From a phage: a stretch of DNA of 64,000 nucleotides. The DNA lies in sequence record PX246731.1; one strand, given 5' to 3'. The notes below the pieces were generated by a model. The model had not been told where the DNA came from. It saw only the letters and a program-made list of their open reading frames with translations, and searched no databases. Positions within the stretch are counted from its first letter, which is position 1; each line of letters starts with the position of its first letter. Shown in pieces: positions 25,245 to 35,749 of this stretch. The position numbers and the translations under genes were made by a program.

Positions 25245-27824
25245 ATGCGTTACATCACCTCTCAAGATACGGGTAAGTATCCCATTGCTATCCTCGGTCA
25301 TCAAATCCGAAGGGAGGAGATGATTAAAACCTACTTGCTGCCTAATGACCTAAGTATGGAAGATTTCATCTTCATTGAACTTCATTCTGCCCCTGGTAAG
25401 AAGAAGACTCCTGCAAGGGAGATTAAGGAGTTCATACAGCAGGAACTGCAACAAGTACTGGATGATGCAGAGACTCAGTACATTATCTGTACCGATTCTG
25501 ATTACTTTAAAATACTGACTAAAGAAGCTAAAGCAGAGGCTAACCTCGGCTATGTTTGTGACTCAGTATGGGGTAAGCAGAAGGTTATCTATGCACCTAG
25601 CTACAGACAGGTCTTTTATGACCCTCCTGTAGTGAAATCCAAGATTGCTCAGGGTATGGATGCATTACTTAACCACATTCGTGGACAGTATGCTGAACCA
25701 GGTCATGGAATCATTGAGTTTGAAGCCTACCCGGATACTCCAGAAAAGATTAAAGCCTGGCTAGACCAGTTGCTTGAGATGAATAAGCCACTGGCTATAG
25801 ACATTGAAGCATTCGGTTTAAAGCACTATAACGCAGGTATAGGGACAATTACATTCTGTTGGAGTAAGACACAAGGCATAGCCTTTAATGTGGACTACGA
25901 GCCAATTCCTGGAGCTACTGAAGCACCATATGGACGTATCAACAGGAATGATGTTGTTCGAAATCTTCTACGCGAGTTCTTCATTAAGTACACACAACGG
26001 CAGATGTATCACAACATTAGCTATGACGTGTATGTACTTATCTATCAGTTATTCATGGATAACCTGATTGATACAGAAGGCTTACTGCATGGCATGGAAA
26101 TCATGCTGCGTAATTGGGACTGTACTAAGCTAATCACTTACTTAGCTACTAACAGTTGTGCTGGTAATCACCTTAGTCTGAAAGATCAAGCTCAGGAGTA
26201 TGCTGGTAACTATGCTCAGGATGATATTAAAGACATTCGTCTTATTCCTAATGAGCAACTGTTACGCTACAACCTCATTGATGGTTTATGTACTTGGTAC
26301 ACCTATGAGAAGCACTGGGATACCTTGGTAGCTGATGACCAACTGGATGTTTACAACAACATCTTTAAGCCAGCTTGTGAAGACATCATCCAGATGCAAT
26401 TAACCGGTATGCCTATGAATATGGATACCGTTAACCAAGTAGCTAAGGAGATGGAAACTGACAGGAACCAAGCTCTGAAAACTATTCGTGAGTCTAAGCT
26501 CATGAAGAACTTCACCCTGATGCTTCGTCAGGAATGGGTAGATGATAAGAATGCTAAGCTTAAGAAGAAACAAGTAACGCTTGCTGACTGTGACATCGAG
26601 TTTAATCCAAACTCCGGTCCACAATTACAGAAGCTGTTATTTGATTATATTGGCTTACCGGTTCTTGGTCTTACTAAGAACAAGCAACCTGCTACTGACG
26701 GTGACACTATTAAAGCACTGCGTACACACACGCAGAGTGAAGATGTTAAGGAACTGCTCAATGCACTTATCGACTATAAGCTCGTGGATAAGATTATCAC
26801 TAGCTTTATACCAGCTTTCAGGAATGCCCAACCCGGGCCGGATGGATGGCACTACCTATTCGGCAACCTCAATTTGGGAGGCACAGTCTCCGGTAGGCTA
26901 TCGGCTTCAGAGCCAAATCTACAAACAATTCCATCCGGCTCTAAATATGCCAAGAAGATTAAGAAATGCTTCGAAGCTCCTCCAGGCTGGATATTTTGCG
27001 GCTTGGATTTCGCCTCGCTGGAAGACAGAATCTCTGCACTAACTACTAAAGACCCACAGAAGCTTAAGGTATATACCGATGGCTATGATGGGCACAGTCT
27101 CCGTGCATATGCTTACTTTGGTGAGCAGATGCCAGACATAGAAGACACAGTAGAATCCATTAACTCCATTCAGCATAAGTACAAATCATTACGTAGTGAC
27201 TCGAAGGCTCCAACCTTCTTGCTTACCTATGGTGGTACGTATATGGGGTTAATGAAAAACTGTGGCTTCTCTGAAGAGAAAGCTAAGACTACAGAGAAAC
27301 GTTATCACGACCTCTATGTAGTTAGCGACAAGTGGGTTCAGGCTAAGCTAGACGAAGCTGCCAAAACTGGTTATGTTACTGCCGCATTCGGTTTGAGAGT
27401 GCGTACTCCTTTACTGGCTCAGGTTTTACGTGGGACATGTAAGACTCCGTATGAAGCAGAAGCAGAAGGCAGAACTGCTGGTAATGCTTTAGGGCAAAGC
27501 TGGTGTCTACTGAATAACCGTGCTGGTTCAGAATTTATGCGTAAAGTCAGAGCCAGTGAGTTCAGGTTAGATATACGTCCTAGTATTCATATTCACGATG
27601 CTCAGTACTTCATGATTCGTGACAACATGGATACCTTGCAGTTCACGAACAAGCACTTGGTTGAGGCCGTTAACTGGCAAGACCATCCCGATATTGCTCA
27701 TCCAGAAGTTGGTTTGGGTGGGGAACTATCCTTGTTTTACCCAACGTGGGCTAACGAGATTGAAATTCCAAATCACGCTACCCCAGAAGAAGTTCATCAA
27801 ATAATTCAAAAGGCATTCGCATGA
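25245..27824 (+). CDS. family A DNA polymerase with 3-5 exonuclease domain (N4 gp39-like)
   Basis: Exo I IDIEAFGL; pol motif A LDFASLEDR; motif B RSDSKAPTFLLTYGG; motif C IHIHDAQYF. Confidence 0.9.
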   Translation: MRYITSQDTGKYPIAILGHQIRREEMIKTYLLPNDLSMEDFIFIELHSAPGKKKTPAREIKEFIQQELQQVLDDAETQYIICTDSDYFKILTKEAKAEANLGYVCDSVWGKQKVIYAPSYRQVFYDPPVVKSKIAQGMDALLNHIRGQYAEPGHGIIEFEAYPDTPEKIKAWLDQLLEMNKPLAIDIEAFGLKHYNAGIGTITFCWSKTQGIAFNVDYEPIPGATEAPYGRINRNDVVRNLLREFFIKYTQRQMYHNISYDVYVLIYQLFMDNLIDTEGLLHGMEIMLRNWDCTKLITYLATNSCAGNHLSLKDQAQEYAGNYAQDDIKDIRLIPNEQLLRYNLIDGLCTWYTYEKHWDTLVADDQLDVYNNIFKPACEDIIQMQLTGMPMNMDTVNQVAKEMETDRNQALKTIRESKLMKNFTLMLRQEWVDDKNAKLKKKQVTLADCDIEFNPNSGPQLQKLLFDYIGLPVLGLTKNKQPATDGDTIKALRTHTQSEDVKELLNALIDYKLVDKIITSFIPAFRNAQPGPDGWHYLFGNLNLGGTVSGRLSASEPNLQTIPSGSKYAKKIKKCFEAPPGWIFCGLDFASLEDRISALTTKDPQKLKVYTDGYDGHSLRAYAYFGEQMPDIEDTVESINSIQHKYKSLRSDSKAPTFLLTYGGTYMGLMKNCGFSEEKAKTTEKRYHDLYVVSDKWVQAKLDEAAKTGYVTAAFGLRVRTPLLAQVLRGTCKTPYEAEAEGRTAGNALGQSWCLLNNRAGSEFMRKVRASEFRLDIRPSIHIHDAQYFMIRDNMDTLQFTNKHLVEAVNWQDHPDIAHPEVGLGGELSLFYPTWANEIEIPNHATPEEVHQIIQKAFA

Positions 27825-28126
27825 CCAAAAGCACTAAAGAAACTGTAGTCAGAAAATATCATTGGATGGTAGCAGCACAGGTAGTATTCCAACTTCCTAA
27901 AGTGGATGATGGTTCCCTGCTTACCATGAATACAATGTTGCTCACTGATGAACCTTATGTGACCTATAAAGATTTGGCCCGTGCCAATCACTCCCTGAAA
28001 ATTAGTCTGGACCAACGCTTCGATACCTCAGTTGACTTGAAAGACATTGTTTACCTGTCTCTTAGCAACCTGGGTCTGATGTCTGAACCAGAGTTCCAGG
28101 CAAACATGATTCCTAAGGAGAAGTAA
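27821..28126 (+). CDS. hypothetical protein (101 aa)
   Basis: ORF, overlapping start. Confidence 0.5.
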   Translation: MTKSTKETVVRKYHWMVAAQVVFQLPKVDDGSLLTMNTMLLTDEPYVTYKDLARANHSLKISLDQRFDTSVDLKDIVYLSLSNLGLMSEPEFQANMIPKEK

Positions 28127-28593
28127 TGGCTAAGCTCTCCGGTGGATTGAATAACTGGTATGTAGTACCAGTTAAGCACCCTCAACGGAAAGAGCAAGAG
28201 CCATATCAAGCGGAGTGTGAGGATATTATCCAAGCACTGGGCATGACCTTCGATGAAGGTTGTGCCTTTAAAGCTCTATGGCGAAATGCTGCTGCCCGTA
28301 TGGGTAATGGTAAACCAGGAAACACTTCAGTATATGACGCTGAAAAGCTAGTTCATTACGCTAATCGTATTCTTACTAAGGAGAAGTTAGTAGATGAATT
28401 GCCTGCCACAGATACCACTGCTATTGGGAGATGCTGGCATTACCCAGGAAATGGGAAGCCTTATATAACAACAAACTTTCAGTTCATTGAGGTAGCGTAC
28501 AAAGGTGAGCTAGATAATATAGTCAGCTATAACTTCGATGAGGTAGAGGGTATTCGCTGGAACCAGGTGCATAAATACAGGATTACTTACTGA
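28126..28593 (+). CDS. hypothetical protein (155 aa)
   Basis: ORF. Confidence 0.5.
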   Translation: MAKLSGGLNNWYVVPVKHPQRKEQEPYQAECEDIIQALGMTFDEGCAFKALWRNAAARMGNGKPGNTSVYDAEKLVHYANRILTKEKLVDELPATDTTAIGRCWHYPGNGKPYITTNFQFIEVAYKGELDNIVSYNFDEVEGIRWNQVHKYRITY

Positions 28594-29573
28594 TGAAGAT
28601 AACCAACAATCATGGTGTCTCACTGGCCCTGGCTGTATGGCTATTACATGACGAGTATGATTACGTAGACAATCCTAAGTATTTGTCTGTTACTACATTG
28701 CTTAAGCCTATTAAGCAAATCGTCATGAAACATCGTGTAGATCTTAGTGACCAGTCAATTGATGTTATGGATTTCGTCTCCACATCAATGGGTACTGGTT
28801 TACATGATTCTATCGAGAAAGCCTGGAAGCTGGGACATAAGACTGCATTGAAGAAGTTGGGATATCCTCAGCGAGTAATTGATGCAGTAGTTATTAACCC
28901 AACCAAAGCAGACTTTGATGCTAACCCTGACCTTATCCCAATCTACATTGAACAACGTGGAACCAGGGTAGTTAAGGGTTGGACTATCGGTGGTAAGTTC
29001 GACATCGTAACAGAAGGTCTGCTGCAAGACTTTAAGTCCACCTCAACCTATTCCTGGGTTGCTGGTTCCCGTGATGATGAACACAAGATGCAAGGCAGCT
29101 TGTACCGTTGGATTCACAACGACATCATTACTGAGGATGTAATCCGTATTAACTACATCTTCACTGATTTCATGAAGCACATGGCTAATAGCAACCCGAA
29201 CTATCCTGCTAATCGTATTATGCACAAGGATATTCCGTTGCTATCTGTCGAGAATACTGAACGTTGGGTAGAAGAGAAGATTCACCTCATTGAGAAGTAC
29301 TGGAATGCACCTGAAGAGGAAATTCCTGAATGTACTGACGAGGAGTTGTGGCGAACAGAGCCACAGTTCAAATACTTCTCTGATGCTTCCAAGGTAGATG
29401 TGCCTGGAGCCAGAAGTACCAAAAACTTTGACGATATGGCATCTGCTCGTATCTTCATGGCTGAAAAAGGTGGCAAGGGTGCTATCAAGGTCGTGGAGGG
29501 GCAGGTTAAGCGTTGTCTATACTGCCCTGTCGCGTCCATTTGCAAACAAAGAGAGAGATATTTTCCATCATGA
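28593..29573 (+). CDS. PD-(D/E)xK nuclease, Cas4/RecB-like, with C-terminal Cys cluster (tentative)
   Basis: GKFDIV...LQDFK looks like a D...(D/E)xK core; C-terminal CLYCPVASIC is a CX2CX5C cluster. Confidence 0.45.
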   Translation: MKITNNHGVSLALAVWLLHDEYDYVDNPKYLSVTTLLKPIKQIVMKHRVDLSDQSIDVMDFVSTSMGTGLHDSIEKAWKLGHKTALKKLGYPQRVIDAVVINPTKADFDANPDLIPIYIEQRGTRVVKGWTIGGKFDIVTEGLLQDFKSTSTYSWVAGSRDDEHKMQGSLYRWIHNDIITEDVIRINYIFTDFMKHMANSNPNYPANRIMHKDIPLLSVENTERWVEEKIHLIEKYWNAPEEEIPECTDEELWRTEPQFKYFSDASKVDVPGARSTKNFDDMASARIFMAEKGGKGAIKVVEGQVKRCLYCPVASICKQRERYFPS

Positions 29574-31723
29574 GTATTGACCTGACCGGAGTCACTCACC
29601 ACCCTGCAATTGAAGAAATTGTAGACGTGCTGTGTAACAAGACGCAAAACAACGACAGAGGATTCTTCCGTGTCGAAGTAGCCTACTTCCTGGCTAAAAT
29701 GGCATCCTGCATGGGTGCAACCATTGTCACTAAAGACCGTGGTGACTTACCAGTCAACATTTACGCTATGGCATTAGCAACGTCTGGCTTCGGTAAAGGT
29801 CACTCGGTAAATATTATTGAAGACGGGTTCATGACTGGCTTCCGTAAACGCTTTATGGAAGACACCATGCCCGTCATTGCAAATGACCGTTTATGGAAGA
29901 TTGCTAACGAACGTGCTGCTCGTCAGGGTACAGACCAGAACGATGAGTTTGATAAAGTTGAAGCAGAATATAAACGTGCTGGGGCATACCCGTTTACGTT
30001 TGACTCGGGTACTCCACCAGCAGTGAAACAGCTACGGCATAAGCTGTTAATGGCTGGGTGTGGTTCAATCAACCTTCAGATTGATGAGATTGGTTCAAAC
30101 CTGTTGGCTAACACAGATGTATTAACCCTGTTCCTGGAATTATATGACCAGGGTAAGGTTAAACAGAAGTTAACCAAGAATACTGCTGAAAGTGTCCGTG
30201 GGGAAGAACTGGATGGTAAGACTCCAGCTAACCTGTTGCTGTTTGGTACACCAAGTAAGCTACTGGATGGTGGTCAGACTGAAGACCAGTTCTATGACTT
30301 TCTGGATACAGGATATGCTCGTCGCTGTCTGTTTGCCATTGGGCATATAGACAAACGAGCACATGCAACAATGTCTCCAGAAGAAATCTACCGTAACCTG
30401 ATTAAGCAGGATAACGTACAGTCTCTAGGTAAGTGGGCTAATCATTTCCATAGTTTGGCTGACCCAAACCTGTTTGGCTTTAAGATGGTTGTGGAAGATG
30501 CAGTGGGCATTGCTCTGATTACTTACAAGATTGATTGTGAGAAACAAGCAGAAGCTATGGCTGACCACGAAGAAATTCGTAAAGCTGAAATCTCTCACCG
30601 TTACTTCAAAGCTCTTAAGCTGGCTGGAGCACTGGCGTTTGTTGACCAGAGTTCATTCATTGAGATGTCCCACCTTAAACAAGCAATTCTGCTTGTAGAA
30701 GAATCCGGAGCAGCATTCCAGGGTATCCTCAATCGTGAGAAAGCCTACGTGAAGCTGGCTAAGTACATTGCCTCTGTAGGTAAAGAAGTGACTCATGCTG
30801 ACTTACTGGAGTCATTGCCGTTCTATAAGAGTGGCAATGCAGCTCGTAATGAGATGATGACTCTTGCTACAGCATGGGGTTATAAGCAGCACATCATTAT
30901 TAAGAAGACCTTCAATGAAGGTATTGAGTTCTTCCGTGGGGAAACTCTGAAAGAAACTGACATCAATGAGATGATAGTGGCATATAGTGATAGCTTTGCT
31001 TATGACTACATTGGTGAACGTGTACCGTTCGACCAGTTGCATGTATTAACCCAAGCTCCCGGTATGCACTGGGTGAACCACCACATGAAGAATGGACATC
31101 GTTCTGAAGAGAACGTTATTCCAGGATTTAACATGATTGTTATTGACTGTGATGGTGGAGTACCACTGCATACGTGCCATGAACTGATGAAGGAATATAA
31201 GTTCATGACCTATACCACTAAGCGTCATTCCGATGAAGAGAATCGCTTCCGGCTGATTATTCCAATGAACTATGAGTTACACCTCGATACCGAGGAATAC
31301 AAAGAGTTCATGAATAACGTCATGTCTTGGCTACCGTTTGAAACGGATGAATCTGCTAATCAGCGAGCCAAGAAGTGGATGTCCTGTGAGACTGGTTCTT
31401 ATCATTACAACCTTGAAGCAAATCTGTTGGACGTGCGTGACTTTATTCCTCGTACTAGTAAGAACGAGCAGTTCCAGAACCAGATGAAGGAAGTACAGTC
31501 GTTGGATAATCTGGAGCGTTGGTTCGCTAGTCGTATTGCTACCGGTAATCGTAATAATCAAATGATTAAGTACGCACTGGCATTGGTTGACAGTGGTTGG
31601 GATTTTGCCCAAGTACAGCAAGCCGTCCACTCATTCAATAAGAAACTGGCTAATCCATTGCCTGATGATGAATTGAATGCAACCGTAATGGTCACCGTGG
31701 CTAAACGCTTCGCTGGCAAGTAA
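29570..31723 (+). CDS. primase-like replication protein (AEP-type DxD motif in C-terminal part)
   Basis: MIVIDCDGG resembles the archaeo-eukaryotic primase motif I; position in replication module; start at ATG 29570. Confidence 0.45.
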   Translation: MSIDLTGVTHHPAIEEIVDVLCNKTQNNDRGFFRVEVAYFLAKMASCMGATIVTKDRGDLPVNIYAMALATSGFGKGHSVNIIEDGFMTGFRKRFMEDTMPVIANDRLWKIANERAARQGTDQNDEFDKVEAEYKRAGAYPFTFDSGTPPAVKQLRHKLLMAGCGSINLQIDEIGSNLLANTDVLTLFLELYDQGKVKQKLTKNTAESVRGEELDGKTPANLLLFGTPSKLLDGGQTEDQFYDFLDTGYARRCLFAIGHIDKRAHATMSPEEIYRNLIKQDNVQSLGKWANHFHSLADPNLFGFKMVVEDAVGIALITYKIDCEKQAEAMADHEEIRKAEISHRYFKALKLAGALAFVDQSSFIEMSHLKQAILLVEESGAAFQGILNREKAYVKLAKYIASVGKEVTHADLLESLPFYKSGNAARNEMMTLATAWGYKQHIIIKKTFNEGIEFFRGETLKETDINEMIVAYSDSFAYDYIGERVPFDQLHVLTQAPGMHWVNHHMKNGHRSEENVIPGFNMIVIDCDGGVPLHTCHELMKEYKFMTYTTKRHSDEENRFRLIIPMNYELHLDTEEYKEFMNNVMSWLPFETDESANQRAKKWMSCETGSYHYNLEANLLDVRDFIPRTSKNEQFQNQMKEVQSLDNLERWFASRIATGNRNNQMIKYALALVDSGWDFAQVQQAVHSFNKKLANPLPDDELNATVMVTVAKRFAGK

Positions 31724-31779: not shown

Positions 31780-32532
31780 ATGTCCGAAGTAATTCCCAAT
31801 GATATGAACACTCAGCTAATCCTGATTGCAGGATTCTCAGCGAGTGGTAAATCAGCATCACTGCGTAACATCCGGAACCAGGAACGCTGGCTCTATCTGA
31901 ATACTGAAGCAGGTAAACGTCTGCCTTTCCGTAACAAATTTAATACTTACAACATTGAAGACCCATACCAGATTTGGGAAGCATTTGATGTTGCATCTCC
32001 TGGTGGAGAAATGGCAGATGATGTTGATGGTATCATCATTGACTCAGCAACCTTTATGATGGATATGCTGGAATCCCAGTACGTATTGCCTTCTGCAAAT
32101 ACGCAAAAGGCATGGGGTGACTTTGCACAGTTCTTTAAGATACTGCTGCAACAAAAAGTCGTTAAGTTTGGTAAGCCAGTAATCATTACTGCTCATGCTA
32201 AAGACGAACTTGATGAAGCTGCTGGTGTAATGAAAACATTCATCCCAGTGAAAGGTTCTCTGAAGAATAACGGGCTTGAAGCCTACTTCTCTACAGTGGT
32301 TTACGCAGAACGTGTAGACATTAAAGAACTGGAGAAGTACGGAAACAAGATGCTTGAAATTACGGAAGAAGAACGTGACTTAGGGTATAAGCACGTATTC
32401 CAGACCCGTCCAACTAAGAAGTCGGTCGGTAAACGACTTCGTTCTCCAATGGGTATGTTCGATAAGTCCGAGACTTACATTGATAACGATGCCCAAAAAC
32501 TCTTAGACCATCTGGCTGAATACTACGCTTAA
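31780..32532 (+). CDS. P-loop ATPase (replication/recombination-associated)
   Basis: Walker A GFSASGKS near N-terminus. Confidence 0.5.
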   Translation: MSEVIPNDMNTQLILIAGFSASGKSASLRNIRNQERWLYLNTEAGKRLPFRNKFNTYNIEDPYQIWEAFDVASPGGEMADDVDGIIIDSATFMMDMLESQYVLPSANTQKAWGDFAQFFKILLQQKVVKFGKPVIITAHAKDELDEAAGVMKTFIPVKGSLKNNGLEAYFSTVVYAERVDIKELEKYGNKMLEITEEERDLGYKHVFQTRPTKKSVGKRLRSPMGMFDKSETYIDNDAQKLLDHLAEYYA

Positions 32533-32571: not shown

Positions 32572-33369
32572 ATGTCATTGTTCAGTAATCTGAAAGAAAA
32601 AACCAAAAACGTTGAAGCTGTTAAAGACTCCCTGGGTGGTGGTGGCTTCGGTGCAAAAGAAACCGATATCTACACTGGTACTGTAAAAGTAGCTTACGTA
32701 GGCAAAGCTGACTCTGGTGCAGATTGGATGCAGTTAATCATTGAAGACCTGAAGAACTCTGATGGCGTACCTGCTGGTGAGTTCCGTGCTCAGGTGTACT
32801 TCACTTCTGGTAATGCTAAAGGCAACAAGCCGACTTACGAGAAGAACGGTAAAGAGTACTTCTTGCCTGGCTACACTGTCATTAACGACATGATGCTGAT
32901 GGCTACCGGTACTGAACTGCCTGAAGCTGACTTCGAAGAGAAGATTGTTAAAGTCTATGACTTCGATGCTAAAGCAGAAGTTAATAAATCCGTCATGGTT
33001 CCGGTTGACCTGGTAGGTCAGACTGTTACCTTCGCTCTGGAAAAGGTTCTGGAATCCAAGCAGGTTAAAGGTGACAACGGTTACGTTGACTCCGGTGAAA
33101 CTCGTGAAGTAAACGAGATTCAGAAAGTGTTTCATCCGGAACTGTTGGTCACAGTCGTCGAAGCTCAGGAAGCAGAGAAGGCTGAGAAAGAACTGACCCC
33201 AGAACTGGCTGTATTCTATGCAGCATGGCTAGAGAAGAACAAAGGCAAGACTCGTGACAAGACTAAGAGTTCTGCTGGTGGTAATGGTAAAGGTGGCTTG
33301 CCTCCTAAACCTGGTGCTGGCACGGGTACTACTCCTACTGGTGGTAAATCACTGTTCGGTAAACGTTAA
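32572..33369 (+). CDS. single-stranded DNA-binding protein, N4 gp45-like (tentative)
   Basis: 265 aa, close to N4 SSB size; Gly-rich tail; placed between replication ATPase and RuvC-like gene. Confidence 0.45.
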   Translation: MSLFSNLKEKTKNVEAVKDSLGGGGFGAKETDIYTGTVKVAYVGKADSGADWMQLIIEDLKNSDGVPAGEFRAQVYFTSGNAKGNKPTYEKNGKEYFLPGYTVINDMMLMATGTELPEADFEEKIVKVYDFDAKAEVNKSVMVPVDLVGQTVTFALEKVLESKQVKGDNGYVDSGETREVNEIQKVFHPELLVTVVEAQEAEKAEKELTPELAVFYAAWLEKNKGKTRDKTKSSAGGNGKGGLPPKPGAGTGTTPTGGKSLFGKR

Positions 33370-33923
33370 TGAAAATCCCAATTGTCGGTGCAGACATTAG
33401 TCTCCGCAATTGGGGTTTAGCTCGTGGGATGCTGGACATTGAGTCCGGCGTCTTCGAGCAGGTCGAACTTAAACTGGTTCAAACTGAAGTTGACCACAAC
33501 AAACAAGTTCGAACCAACTCCAAAGATATACAAGCCGCTCACGATTTGTTTCTTGGTTGTGAGGAATGGTTACGGTCTGCTAAAGCAGTATTCGTAGAAG
33601 TACCAGTAGGCTCTCAGTCTGCTAACGGTATGAAATCCTATGGCGTATGCGTAGGATTAATAGGTGCATTTCGTGCATTGGGTTGTCCAATCTTTGAAGT
33701 ATCCCCAATTGAAAACAAACTTGCACTGGTCGGTGATAAAACTGCATCCAAGGACACGATGATTCGTGCTGCTCATGCCATCTATCCTGAAGCCAACTGG
33801 CTCACGGATAAGAAAGGCAAACTTCTGAATAAGAATGAGCACTTAGCAGATGCAATCGGTGCAATCCATGCTGGTGTAAATCTCCCAGCTTTCCAGAACC
33901 TCATTAAATTATTAAAGGCGTAA
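33369..33923 (+). CDS. RuvC-like Holliday junction resolvase
   Basis: N-terminal IVGADIS, central FVEVP, C-terminal EHLADAIGAIHAG resemble RuvC catalytic motifs. Confidence 0.55.
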   Translation: MKIPIVGADISLRNWGLARGMLDIESGVFEQVELKLVQTEVDHNKQVRTNSKDIQAAHDLFLGCEEWLRSAKAVFVEVPVGSQSANGMKSYGVCVGLIGAFRALGCPIFEVSPIENKLALVGDKTASKDTMIRAAHAIYPEANWLTDKKGKLLNKNEHLADAIGAIHAGVNLPAFQNLIKLLKA

Positions 33924-33924
33924 T

Positions 33925-34371
33925 ATGCAAATCATTTTGAACCAGTCCGAAGTAGAAGCTGCTGTACAGGCTTATGTCGATGATCAAATCAATCTTGCTG
34001 GTGACATCAATATTGTCATCAATGCAGATGGTACTGCCTCCGTTGGTATTAATGAAGAGGTAAGTCATGATGATGACACCCCACCCGTGGTAGAGAAGAA
34101 GACTCGTCGTTCTCGTAAGAACCCACAAGAAGCTAAACATCGTCCGGTAGAACCAGAACCGGAAGAAGTAGCTGAAGAGGTAAAGGTAGAAGAAACCCAG
34201 ACCTCTACTGGTGGTCAGAACGAGAGTTCTACGCCGGAACCTGAAGAAGAAGAAGCAGTAACTGAACCAGAAGCACAAGAAGAAGTTGTGCAGGAAGAAG
34301 TTAAGGCTGAAGAACCAGCAGAAAAACCTGCTACTAAGCCTTCACTGTTCGCTGGCCTTAAACGTAGTTAA
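33925..34371 (+). CDS. acidic Glu-rich protein (148 aa)
   Basis: ORF; C-terminal half highly acidic (EPEPEEVAEE...). Confidence 0.5.
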   Translation: MQIILNQSEVEAAVQAYVDDQINLAGDINIVINADGTASVGINEEVSHDDDTPPVVEKKTRRSRKNPQEAKHRPVEPEPEEVAEEVKVEETQTSTGGQNESSTPEPEEEEAVTEPEAQEEVVQEEVKAEEPAEKPATKPSLFAGLKRS

Positions 34372-34602
34372 TCTGGTAGGTGGCTCAGAAGCTGCTGCTA
34401 GGTGTGGTAGTGTTTATAGTCCTGATGCTACTACTGGTCAGGATTATAGACGTGTCGGCTCCATACATAGCTTTTATCATCACTGTCATTATCCTGTGGA
34501 AATGCAGTGGTAAACACGGTGGTGACAAGCCGCCAGAGTAACAACAACCGAACCAGTGTGCAGGAATACTCTCCCCTGTGCATTGGTTCAACTGAGGCCA
34601 AT

Positions 34603-34773
34603 ATGAACAAATTTACTATTCACTGGTTTAATGGAAAGGTTAGTTCTTTCATGGGTGGAGAACCTGCTGAAGGAAAGAAAGCATTTCACATTGAATCAGA
34701 AGGCTGCAAAATCTTAGTACCGTATGTTTGGTATAAAGATGGTGAAGTAGAAGCATTAAAAAAGAGTAGTTAA
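34603..34773 (+). CDS. small hypothetical protein (56 aa)
   Basis: ATG with GAGG RBS; the upstream part of the listed ORF lacks an RBS. Confidence 0.4.
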   Translation: MNKFTIHWFNGKVSSFMGGEPAEGKKAFHIESEGCKILVPYVWYKDGEVEALKKSS

Positions 34774-35349
34774 TATCGTGAAGGGTTCTGTTAGAATCCT
34801 TTGAGATAGGAACTCCTATCATAACCTTTCTTAACTTAATCTTTGCCGTATGGCACTGACGCTAGGGTTGATGCCCATCCGTCAGTTAGACTATTTTAAG
34901 AATGGGTTATCACAGAAAATGTAAAGCAACATTCGGGTTAATCAATGGCCTCTCCCTATATGGGCCATTTCTGAATCTTAGGCTATATCCCAAAGGTTAG
35001 TATCTTTGGGATAAGGCTTCAGATCCCTTATCAAACTAACGCTCATGTTGAGCACAACATTAACCCTTAATGTCGGATAGTTCATTAGGCTATTCCTCCA
35101 ACATCGAGATGTTAGGTCTTACATGTAAGCTAAAACATAGGGTAAAGAGGGACTTGTCATCCCTCCCCTATTATGACATCCTATCAATGAGTACATTAAG
35201 CTAACGTGCGGAGGTTTACACTGTAGCCGGTGTAGATAGAGAAGACGGCAGGATAGCTACCTGTGCTTAGTGTACTCTTTGATAGGTTGTGCTATCAAAG
35301 TCCAGACGATATCTGAGTGACTTTAAAAACAGATGGAGCCAGGTGGAAT

Positions 35350-35429
35350 CCCTGGCAATTAATTCCGGTGTAGGTACTAGTGTCGTGCACGGCATGAGCA
35401 TTCTGGTTCGAGTCCAGACGCCGGAACCA
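35350..35429 (+). tRNA. tRNA candidate with encoded CCA (5-prime boundary uncertain)
   Basis: T-arm TCTGG-TTCGAGT-CCAGA at 35402-35418, acceptor 3-prime strand CGCCGGA pairs with TCCGGTG at 35364-35370, then A-CCA; full cloverleaf not resolved by hand. Confidence 0.35.
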
Positions 35430-35477
35430 ATTACCAGTTGCACGAGATGGCTTGACATGTTCAAGTTTGGACTAAGT

Positions 35478-35555
35478 ATGACACCGCTAGATTGGAGGGC
35501 TGCTGCGGTAAGCTATAGACTCCAACCGGGGGTTCGAATCCCTCACTGGTAACCA
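35478..35555 (+). tRNA. tRNA candidate with encoded CCA (5-prime boundary uncertain)
   Basis: T-arm GGGGG-TTCGAAT-CCCTC at 35528-35544, then ACTGGTA-A-CCA; a perfect complement TACCAGT lies at 35432-35438, which would imply an insertion. Confidence 0.35.
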
Positions 35556-35675
35556 ATTCAAAGTAGCATTGTGATAATCCATCCCGGAGTTCAAAGGCCA
35601 AACATGGAGCAGTGCTACTTTGAATTAGAAGAATTATGGCGGGTCTGGTGAAGTAGATGGGGTTCGATTCCCTCC

Positions 35676-35749
35676 GGTGGGTAAAACCACTAGCGTGCTT
35701 GGTGCACGAATAAGACTTAATACTGGTGGTTCGATTCCATCCCCCGTTA
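35676..35749 (+). tRNA. tRNA candidate (boundaries uncertain; a second T-arm motif at 35658-35674 precedes it)
   Basis: T-arm GGTGG-TTCGATT-CCATC at 35725-35741 and acceptor-like CCCCGTT; GATGGGG at 35656 or GGTGGGT at 35676 could pair with it. Confidence 0.3.

Follow-up and report, generated by a model that had tools for sequence, protein, structure and literature searches.

The 64,000-nucleotide stretch of phage DNA analyzed here (sequence record PX246731.1; hereafter, the window) raises the question of what kind of nuclease is encoded by one gene in its replication module, and what such a nuclease would do for the phage. A first-pass annotation had described this gene, which corresponds to gp42 of phage N4, as encoding a Cas4/RecB-like nuclease of the PD-(D/E)xK type with a C-terminal CX2CX5C cluster of cysteines. 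The gene is located as follows.

28593..29573, plus strand: gp42-type exonuclease gene, orthologue of N4 gp42; an ATG-to-TGA open reading frame (ORF) of 326 amino acids.

Based on the data presented below, gp42 is a predicted PD-(D/E)xK nuclease of the RecB/Cas4 fold with family-specific additions. [quoted passage not shown]

To begin with the identity of the gene, its nucleotide sequence is 95-97% identical to the best-matching records, which are mostly Gamaleyavirus genomes of Escherichia and Shigella phages (e.g., St11Ph5 and pSb-1), and 56 of the 59 records with nucleotide matches are at least 90% identical. The protein shares 96-99% amino acid identity with Gamaleyavirus proteins, and the window is from a Gamaleyavirus (N4-like, Schitoviridae). 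N4 gp42 is 71% identical to the window protein, has the same length, and occupies the same slot between gp41 and the primase gene, while the orthologue in St11Ph5 carries the RefSeq label 'exonuclease, gp42' and is flanked by gp41 and by gp43 (the primase, labelled 'DNS protein'). A match to PHROG 2139, 'exonuclease', extends over residues 1-325 (E=6.4e-152). Full-length homologues were detected by tblastn in 472 phage records, nearly all of them N4-like and from many host genera, a conservation that rules out a chance ORF. In both full-length similarity and synteny, gp42 belongs to the N4 gp42 orthologous group (PHROG 2139), and all of its motifs are common to N4 gp42 and the Schitoviridae orthologues, with no difference of substance. 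Public records already contain the gene with the label 'exonuclease' or 'PD-(D/E)XK', and in kind the finding is thus not new. In previous work by Wittmann et al., gp42 was among the few proteins that three independent methods found in every N4-like phage, at a time when it was functionally unnamed (PMC7650795), and the literature on gp42 goes no further than calling it conserved, a core protein, or an 'exonuclease' by homology.

Two further records bear on the gene and its product. In Escherichia phage UE-S5b (PP301341.1, 45255-46384), the gp42 match falls into two pieces spread over 1130 bp instead of 981, with a 'UvrD/REP helicase' annotated beneath; an inserted or duplicated segment, or an artefact of annotation in that record, could account for this. 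In the roseophage vB_DshP-R7L, gp60 and gp63, a gp42-like exonuclease and a gp45-like SSB, were identified by proteomics of purified virions (PMC11934525); this may mean that DNA-binding proteins, being abundant, were carried over, or that the two are truly packaged.

An exhaustive HMMER search returned 2629 representatives of 50%-identity clusters at E<=1e-3, and conservation was scored in an alignment of 145 full-length cluster representatives, which share only 36-54% identity with the query. The motifs of the nuclease part are listed below with their conservation in this alignment.

28686..28709, plus strand: N-terminal motif S32-x-T34-x-L36-x-K38-P39 (S32 99%, T34 97%, L36 91%, K38 82%), containing no Cys.
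28803..28817, plus strand: motif I region H71-D-S-I-E75, putative metal or phosphate ligands (H71 100%, E75 97%).
28989..29003, plus strand: motif II G133-G-K-F-D137 with the predicted catalytic Asp (G134 and D137 invariant).
29028..29036, plus strand: motif III D146-F-K148, the (D/E)xK of PD-(D/E)xK (invariant, within LQD146-F-K148).
29091..29105, plus strand: Q167-G-S-L-Y171, a QxxxY motif (Q167 and Y171 100%).

The invariance of D137 and D146-F-K148 extends to a wider alignment, A2, and in the predicted structure these residues sit on strands E130-135/138-140 and E143-150. The QxxxY motif is typical of RecB-family nucleases. With an Asp followed by (D/E)xK, the QxxxY motif, and the fold described next, gp42 belongs to the RecB-like branch of the PD-(D/E)xK superfamily, and the core that the first-pass annotation had perceived is borne out by the complete conservation of D137, D146-x-K148, and Q167xxxY171.

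An AlphaFold2 model built from an alignment of 88 sequences had a predicted local distance difference test score (pLDDT) of 95.1 and a predicted template modelling score of 0.87, with no residue below a pLDDT of 70. In a comparison of this model with solved structures, the entries after the best match were a Cas4-Cas1 fusion (10.9), human Exo5 (10.7), Dna2 (10.1), AdnAB (9.9), MGME1 (9.9), RecE (9.3), other Cas4 proteins, and lambda Exo (7.6). Foldseek agreed on the fold, matching the Cas4 protein SSO0001 (PDB 4IC1) at E=2e-7. Among predicted viral structures, one cluster, from an N4-like Delftia phage, matched over the full length (template modelling score 0.90), and the others were generic Cas4-like viral nucleases with scores of ~0.4.

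At the level of sequence models, PDDEXK_1 (Pfam PF12705) was matched at E<=0.01 by 51 of 88 family members, with a best value of 3.9e-10, and the gp42 family is placed at the edge of this model. The window protein also matched PHROG 1706, labelled 'CRISPR/Cas system associated' (CRISPR: short palindromic repeats, clustered and regularly interspaced), at E=3.7e-10. It had no match to Pfam Cas_Cas4 at E<=1, to NCBIfam, or to PADLOC at E<=0.1; the homologue in Leptospira phage LE4, a distant relative, weakly matched one PADLOC Cas4 model (E=2.2e-5). Thus, the earlier assignment to the Cas4 type is supported by the fold, and the predicted presence of a PD-(D/E)xK fold is confirmed, but the Cas4 assignment is not supported by the sequence models, where the Cas4-specific matches are missing and PDDEXK_1 remains below its cut-off.

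The most telling evidence on function comes from the genomic context of distant relatives, which are 23-30% identical to gp42. In Leptospira phage LE4, the homologue is separated from a RecT annealase by one small gene. In seven metagenomic phage contigs, an annealase is encoded one to four genes downstream of the homologue on the same strand (ERF in five of the seven, Sak in two), and a RusA resolvase is encoded upstream. Together with the Sak4-like protein of N4-like phages, one exonuclease family is therefore found paired with four annealase families: Sak4, RecT, ERF, and Sak. An annealase that varies beside a constant exonuclease is what characterizes modular pairs of the two, as in lambda Red and RecET.

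In addition, the metagenomic loci L006-L012 and L015-L017 share a conserved divergent organization: the gp42-like exonuclease gene has small ORFs and an annealase gene, ERF or Sak, on its own strand, and the opposite strand encodes RusA and a Toprim-DnaB primase-helicase. Several of these contigs encode an N6/N4 methyltransferase further downstream.

Within the window, the genes of this region follow one another on one strand in the order Dda-like helicase gp37, gp38, family-A polymerase gp39, gp40, gp41, gp42, primase gp43, and gp44 to gp47, with genes overlapping or abutting from gp39 to gp43. The neighbours that bear on the function of gp42 are the following.

25245..27824, plus strand: family-A DNA polymerase gp39, upstream of gp42 and part of the same series of overlapping genes.
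29570..31723, plus strand: primase gp43, whose ATG overlaps the gp42 stop.
31780..32532, plus strand: Sak4-like single-stranded-DNA-annealing protein gp44, the proposed partner (PHROG 124, E=1.2e-49; Pfam AAA_24; N4 annotation).
32572..33369, plus strand: N4-type SSB gp45 (PHROG 743, E=7e-89).
33369..33923, plus strand: RuvC-like Holliday-junction resolvase gp46 (PHROG 159, E=1.9e-42).

The gene is thus located in a replication module, as had been claimed, with the polymerase upstream and the primase, annealase, SSB, and resolvase downstream. The annealase gene gp44 lies 2.2 kb downstream of gp42 in the same gene run and orientation, which is the arrangement looked for in two-component exonuclease/annealase recombination systems of phages. 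The gp42 ATG shares one nucleotide with the stop codon of the upstream gene (TGATG), and its stop overlaps the primase ATG by four nucleotides (ATGA at 29570), a tight packing that implies that the gene run is probably translationally coupled. A mechanical ORF list puts the primase start at a TTG at 29513, within gp42; the ATGA overlap, together with the annotation of relatives, points to the ATG at 29570 as the true start. The N4 SSB is reportedly needed for recombination as well as replication, according to the title of a 1995 article by Choi et al. Middle genes of N4 encode replication functions (PMC4496689).

Taken together, these contexts suggest the following pathway. D137, D146, and K148, probably with H71 and E75, would hold the catalytic Mg2+ or Mn2+. 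The protein, which is of monomer size (computed mass 37.5 kDa, isoelectric point 6.2), would resect DNA ends, most likely 5'→3' by analogy with Cas4 SSO0001, lambda Exo, and RecE, leaving 3' single strands. The phage SSB gp45 would then cover these strands, the Sak4-like gp44 would anneal them, and the RuvC-like gp46 would resolve branched products. The pathway would support replication that depends on recombination, the formation of concatemers, and the repair of a genome that is linear and terminally redundant. The ORF, the motifs with their conservation, the fold, and the gene contexts in the window and in relatives are what the analysis shows, while the nuclease activity, its polarity, the partnership with Sak4 and SSB, the identity of the metal, and the ligand role of C247 discussed below are all points that we infer. 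The role that had first been suggested for the protein, processing of DNA ends in replication or recombination, is compatible as a predicted role with the gene neighbourhood both here and in the distant relatives.

Several observations weigh against this proposal. The primase gene separates gp42 from the Sak4 gene in N4-like phages, making their adjacency looser than that of classical exonuclease-annealase pairs, and the seven metagenomic contexts are syntenic and not independent samples. The polarity is taken from relatives, and Cas4-fold enzymes are not uniform in polarity, nor in whether they act as endo- or exonucleases. The match of the window protein to PDDEXK_1 (17.2 bits, E=0.005) did not reach the gathering cut-off of 22 bits. 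A sequence search of the PDB with the single protein gave chance-level matches (E>0.3), and a profile search with 88 sequences gave none at E<=10, so that solved structures are linked to gp42 through fold comparison alone. In the literature, we found no experimental work on gp42. Finally, Guinta et al. are said to have purified an N4-coded 5'→3' exonuclease in 1986, and its tie to gp42 is a proposal: since no gene other than gp42 carries an exonuclease annotation in the closest complete genome, gp42 is the most likely gene for that enzyme. The computed mass of N4 gp42 is 37.6 kDa.

The same enzyme would also fit a somewhat different role, in which gp42 is a dedicated replication nuclease that acts independently of Sak4, as the classical N4 'exo', and serves the N4 polymerase by preparing the ends of the genome or by removing primers. 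The existence of an N4-coded 5'→3' exonuclease, known to us from a citation of the 1986 purification, is in keeping with such a role, as are the translational coupling of gp42 to the primase and its position as the third gene after the polymerase. The assignment of replication functions to the middle genes (PMC4496689) and the lack of a 5'→3' exonuclease domain in the N4 polymerase (PMC2784036) point in the same direction. However, distant relatives keep the exonuclease beside annealases and resolvases, not polymerases, and end resection is the activity typical of the Cas4/RecB fold; primers are, by textbook accounts, usually removed by enzymes of the FEN or RNase H type. Moreover, both roles are compatible within recombination-dependent replication. 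We therefore regard a separate, Sak4-independent role as unlikely.

The fold comparison itself raises another possibility, namely that gp42 is a structure-specific endonuclease or flap nuclease, similar to the single-stranded DNA endonucleases of the Dna2 or Cas4 kind, and not a processive 5'→3' exonuclease. Close fold neighbours, including Dna2, Exo5, and CRISPR Cas4, thread or cut single-stranded flaps, and a conserved insert with basic residues, described below, could sense DNA structure. Nevertheless, there is no direct evidence for this activity, and the annealase context suits exonucleolytic resection equally well or better, leaving a flap nuclease distinctly improbable. An anti-defence or host-directed nuclease, acting by interference with CRISPR adaptation, breakdown of host DNA, or the countering of host nucleases that the first-pass annotation had offered as an alternative, is highly improbable and was rejected for want of any support, because, even though a link with CRISPR interference has been made for pfam12705 phage Cas4-like proteins of Campylobacter phages (PMC5704561), gp42 is a family-wide core gene in phages with hosts of many genera, lies inside a replication/recombination operon and not among early accessory genes, and matches no PADLOC defence model, and the annotation of the closest complete genome lists no cas genes. 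Resection of DNA ends for annealing therefore remains the preferred reading.

Outside the nuclease core, gp42 carries four cysteines, C247, C308, C311, and C317, which are the sole cysteines of the protein and define three features of its C-terminal part.

29331..29333, plus strand: C247, in the motif P-E-C-T-D-E-E-L-W, candidate fourth metal ligand after the core (C247 in 145/145 representatives, L252 97%, W253 99%).
29334..29513, plus strand: insert of 60 residues (248-307), β-β-α-β, between C247 and C308, as assigned by DSSP on the model.
29514..29543, plus strand: C308-X2-C311-X5-C317 cluster (143-144/145 representatives).

No other column of the 145-representative alignment contains Cys in more than 20% of sequences, and since mean column identity is 42% in alignment A2, the cysteine pattern is conserved far beyond chance. 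The CX2CX5C cluster that had been noted earlier is thus upheld, with C308, C311, and C317 each present in 143-144 of the 145 representatives, and the recommended check for a fourth conserved cysteine yielded C247, which is present in all of them at a non-canonical position after the core. C247 is located past the last core helix, in an invariant P-E-C-x4-L-W motif. In the model, the insert comprises strands at 258-262, 277-279, and 297-301 and a helix at 282-291 (pLDDT 92-97), with K260, Y261, R274-x-T-K-N-F279, A285, and G296 conserved, and weak, sub-threshold matches to DUF2188 were found for the insert in 11 of 88 family members.

In Cas4, AddB, Dna2, and Exo5, one cluster cysteine is N-terminal to the nuclease core and three are in a C-terminal CX2CX5C. 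All Cas4 proteins have been reported to carry four conserved cysteines (PMC5704561). In gp42, there is no cysteine before residue 247, and the N-terminal cluster cysteine of the Cas4 layout is therefore absent. By-eye alignment with ORF030 of Pseudomonas phage 73 suggests that S32-x5-K38-P39 corresponds to the position of the canonical S-x5-C-[PK] (ASLIGDECKRKLWY). When the gp42 family was compared by hhalign with the family of this Cas4-domain exonuclease, CX2CX5C alone was aligned (probability 5-17%), leaving the equivalence of K38 to the first cysteine unconfirmed, and the global and greedy modes of hhalign produced meaningless alignments of the same two families.

The ends of inserted domains are normally close together, which makes C247 a natural fourth ligand, and from this topology we infer that it completes the metal site. 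Most likely, the four cysteines hold one iron-sulfur cluster or another metal, with [4Fe-4S], [2Fe-2S], and zinc all possible. Such a cluster would lock the C-terminal module and the 60-residue inserted subdomain onto the nuclease core. Given that the fourth cysteine follows the core and precedes CX2CX5C by 61 residues, the cluster would close a local insert and not staple the N- and C-terminal parts of the protein together. In the LE4-like clade (P0271-P0390; 23-30% identity), the C-terminal motif is CX3CX5C or CX4CX5C and the upstream cysteine is kept 55-65 residues earlier, indicating that the ligand spacing is flexible.

These features set gp42 apart from known systems to different degrees. 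CRISPR Cas4 proteins, including SSO0001 of Saccharolobus solfataricus, share with it the CX2CX5C and the four conserved cysteines, but the first of these is at residue 247 in gp42 and not N-terminal to the core, and gp42 is ~120 residues longer than SSO0001, the 60-residue insert included. The protein has neither a match to a Cas4 sequence model nor a CRISPR context, no cas genes being annotated in the closest complete genome, and together with the absence of the N-terminal cysteine this keeps it out of the Cas4 family proper, although it is predicted to work like a Cas4-type nuclease. The 'iron-staple' domains of AddB, Dna2, Exo5, and AdnB likewise have a fourth cysteine that precedes the core, whereas in gp42 it follows the core. 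Lambda Exo, RecE, and LHK-Exo lack a cysteine cluster and form toroidal oligomers; gp42 has the cysteine cluster, nothing in the present data points to its oligomerization, and it shares no detectable sequence similarity with them. The closest parallel in gene content is that of phage 73, which has the same trio of a Cas4-domain exonuclease (ORF030), SSB (ORF031), and Sak4 (ORF032) in its replication/recombination module, and in which the exonuclease and Sak4 have been noted as a recombination pair (PMC3483164). ORF030 belongs to PHROG 1990 and gp42 to PHROG 2139, and their families are alignable over CX2CX5C alone (hhalign probability 17%). ORF030 has a canonical N-terminal cysteine ('GDECKRKLWY', ASLIGDECKRKLWY) in addition to 'KCGYCAAKDIC', in contrast with gp42, in which the N-terminal cysteine is absent.

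Several observations were also made on other parts of the window. The first ~88 residues of gp41 (28126-28593, plus strand) match several PHROGs, among them phrog_7063, a '3'-phosphatase, 5'-polynucleotide kinase' family that is matched in its C-terminal part (E=2.9e-18), and in related phages the flanks of gp42 include genes for polynucleotide kinase and HNH homing endonuclease; the gp41 spot looks like a hotspot of insertions and domain shuffling. ARAGORN found zero tRNAs in the whole window, whereas in St11Ph5, a close relative, a tRNA-Ala lies immediately downstream of gp47.2. The stretch 34371-36636 is gene-poor and contains a switch of the transcribed strand, a peak of cumulative GC skew, and a strong terminator-like hairpin at 36057-36078.

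As an annotation, this result is routine: it backs an existing label with structural evidence and names likely partners, and it holds no surprise for the specialist. The displaced cysteine and the insert might be the sole points of specialist interest. Here we put forward, tentatively and at slightly worse than even odds, that the 'iron-staple' nuclease of the Cas4/AddB type has been re-wired in the gp42 family, which counts at least 2629 clusters at 50% identity: the ancestral N-terminal ligand would have been lost and replaced by C247, at the base of the insert, and the cluster would clamp this new, conserved, basic subdomain, a possible docking or DNA-handling surface through which one exonuclease family could work with the unrelated annealases Sak4, RecT, ERF, and Sak. 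The displaced fourth cysteine would then amount to a small natural experiment on the purpose of the iron-sulfur 'staple' in nucleases of the Cas4, AddB, and Dna2 type. As far as we found in the literature, the N4 exonuclease of 1986 was never tied to an ORF, and gp42 is now a candidate. The trio of gp42, gp44, and gp45 is a possible recombineering module. More generally, N4-like phages appear to carry their own full recombination set, consisting of a Cas4-fold exonuclease, a Sak4 annealase, an SSB, and a RuvC-like resolvase.

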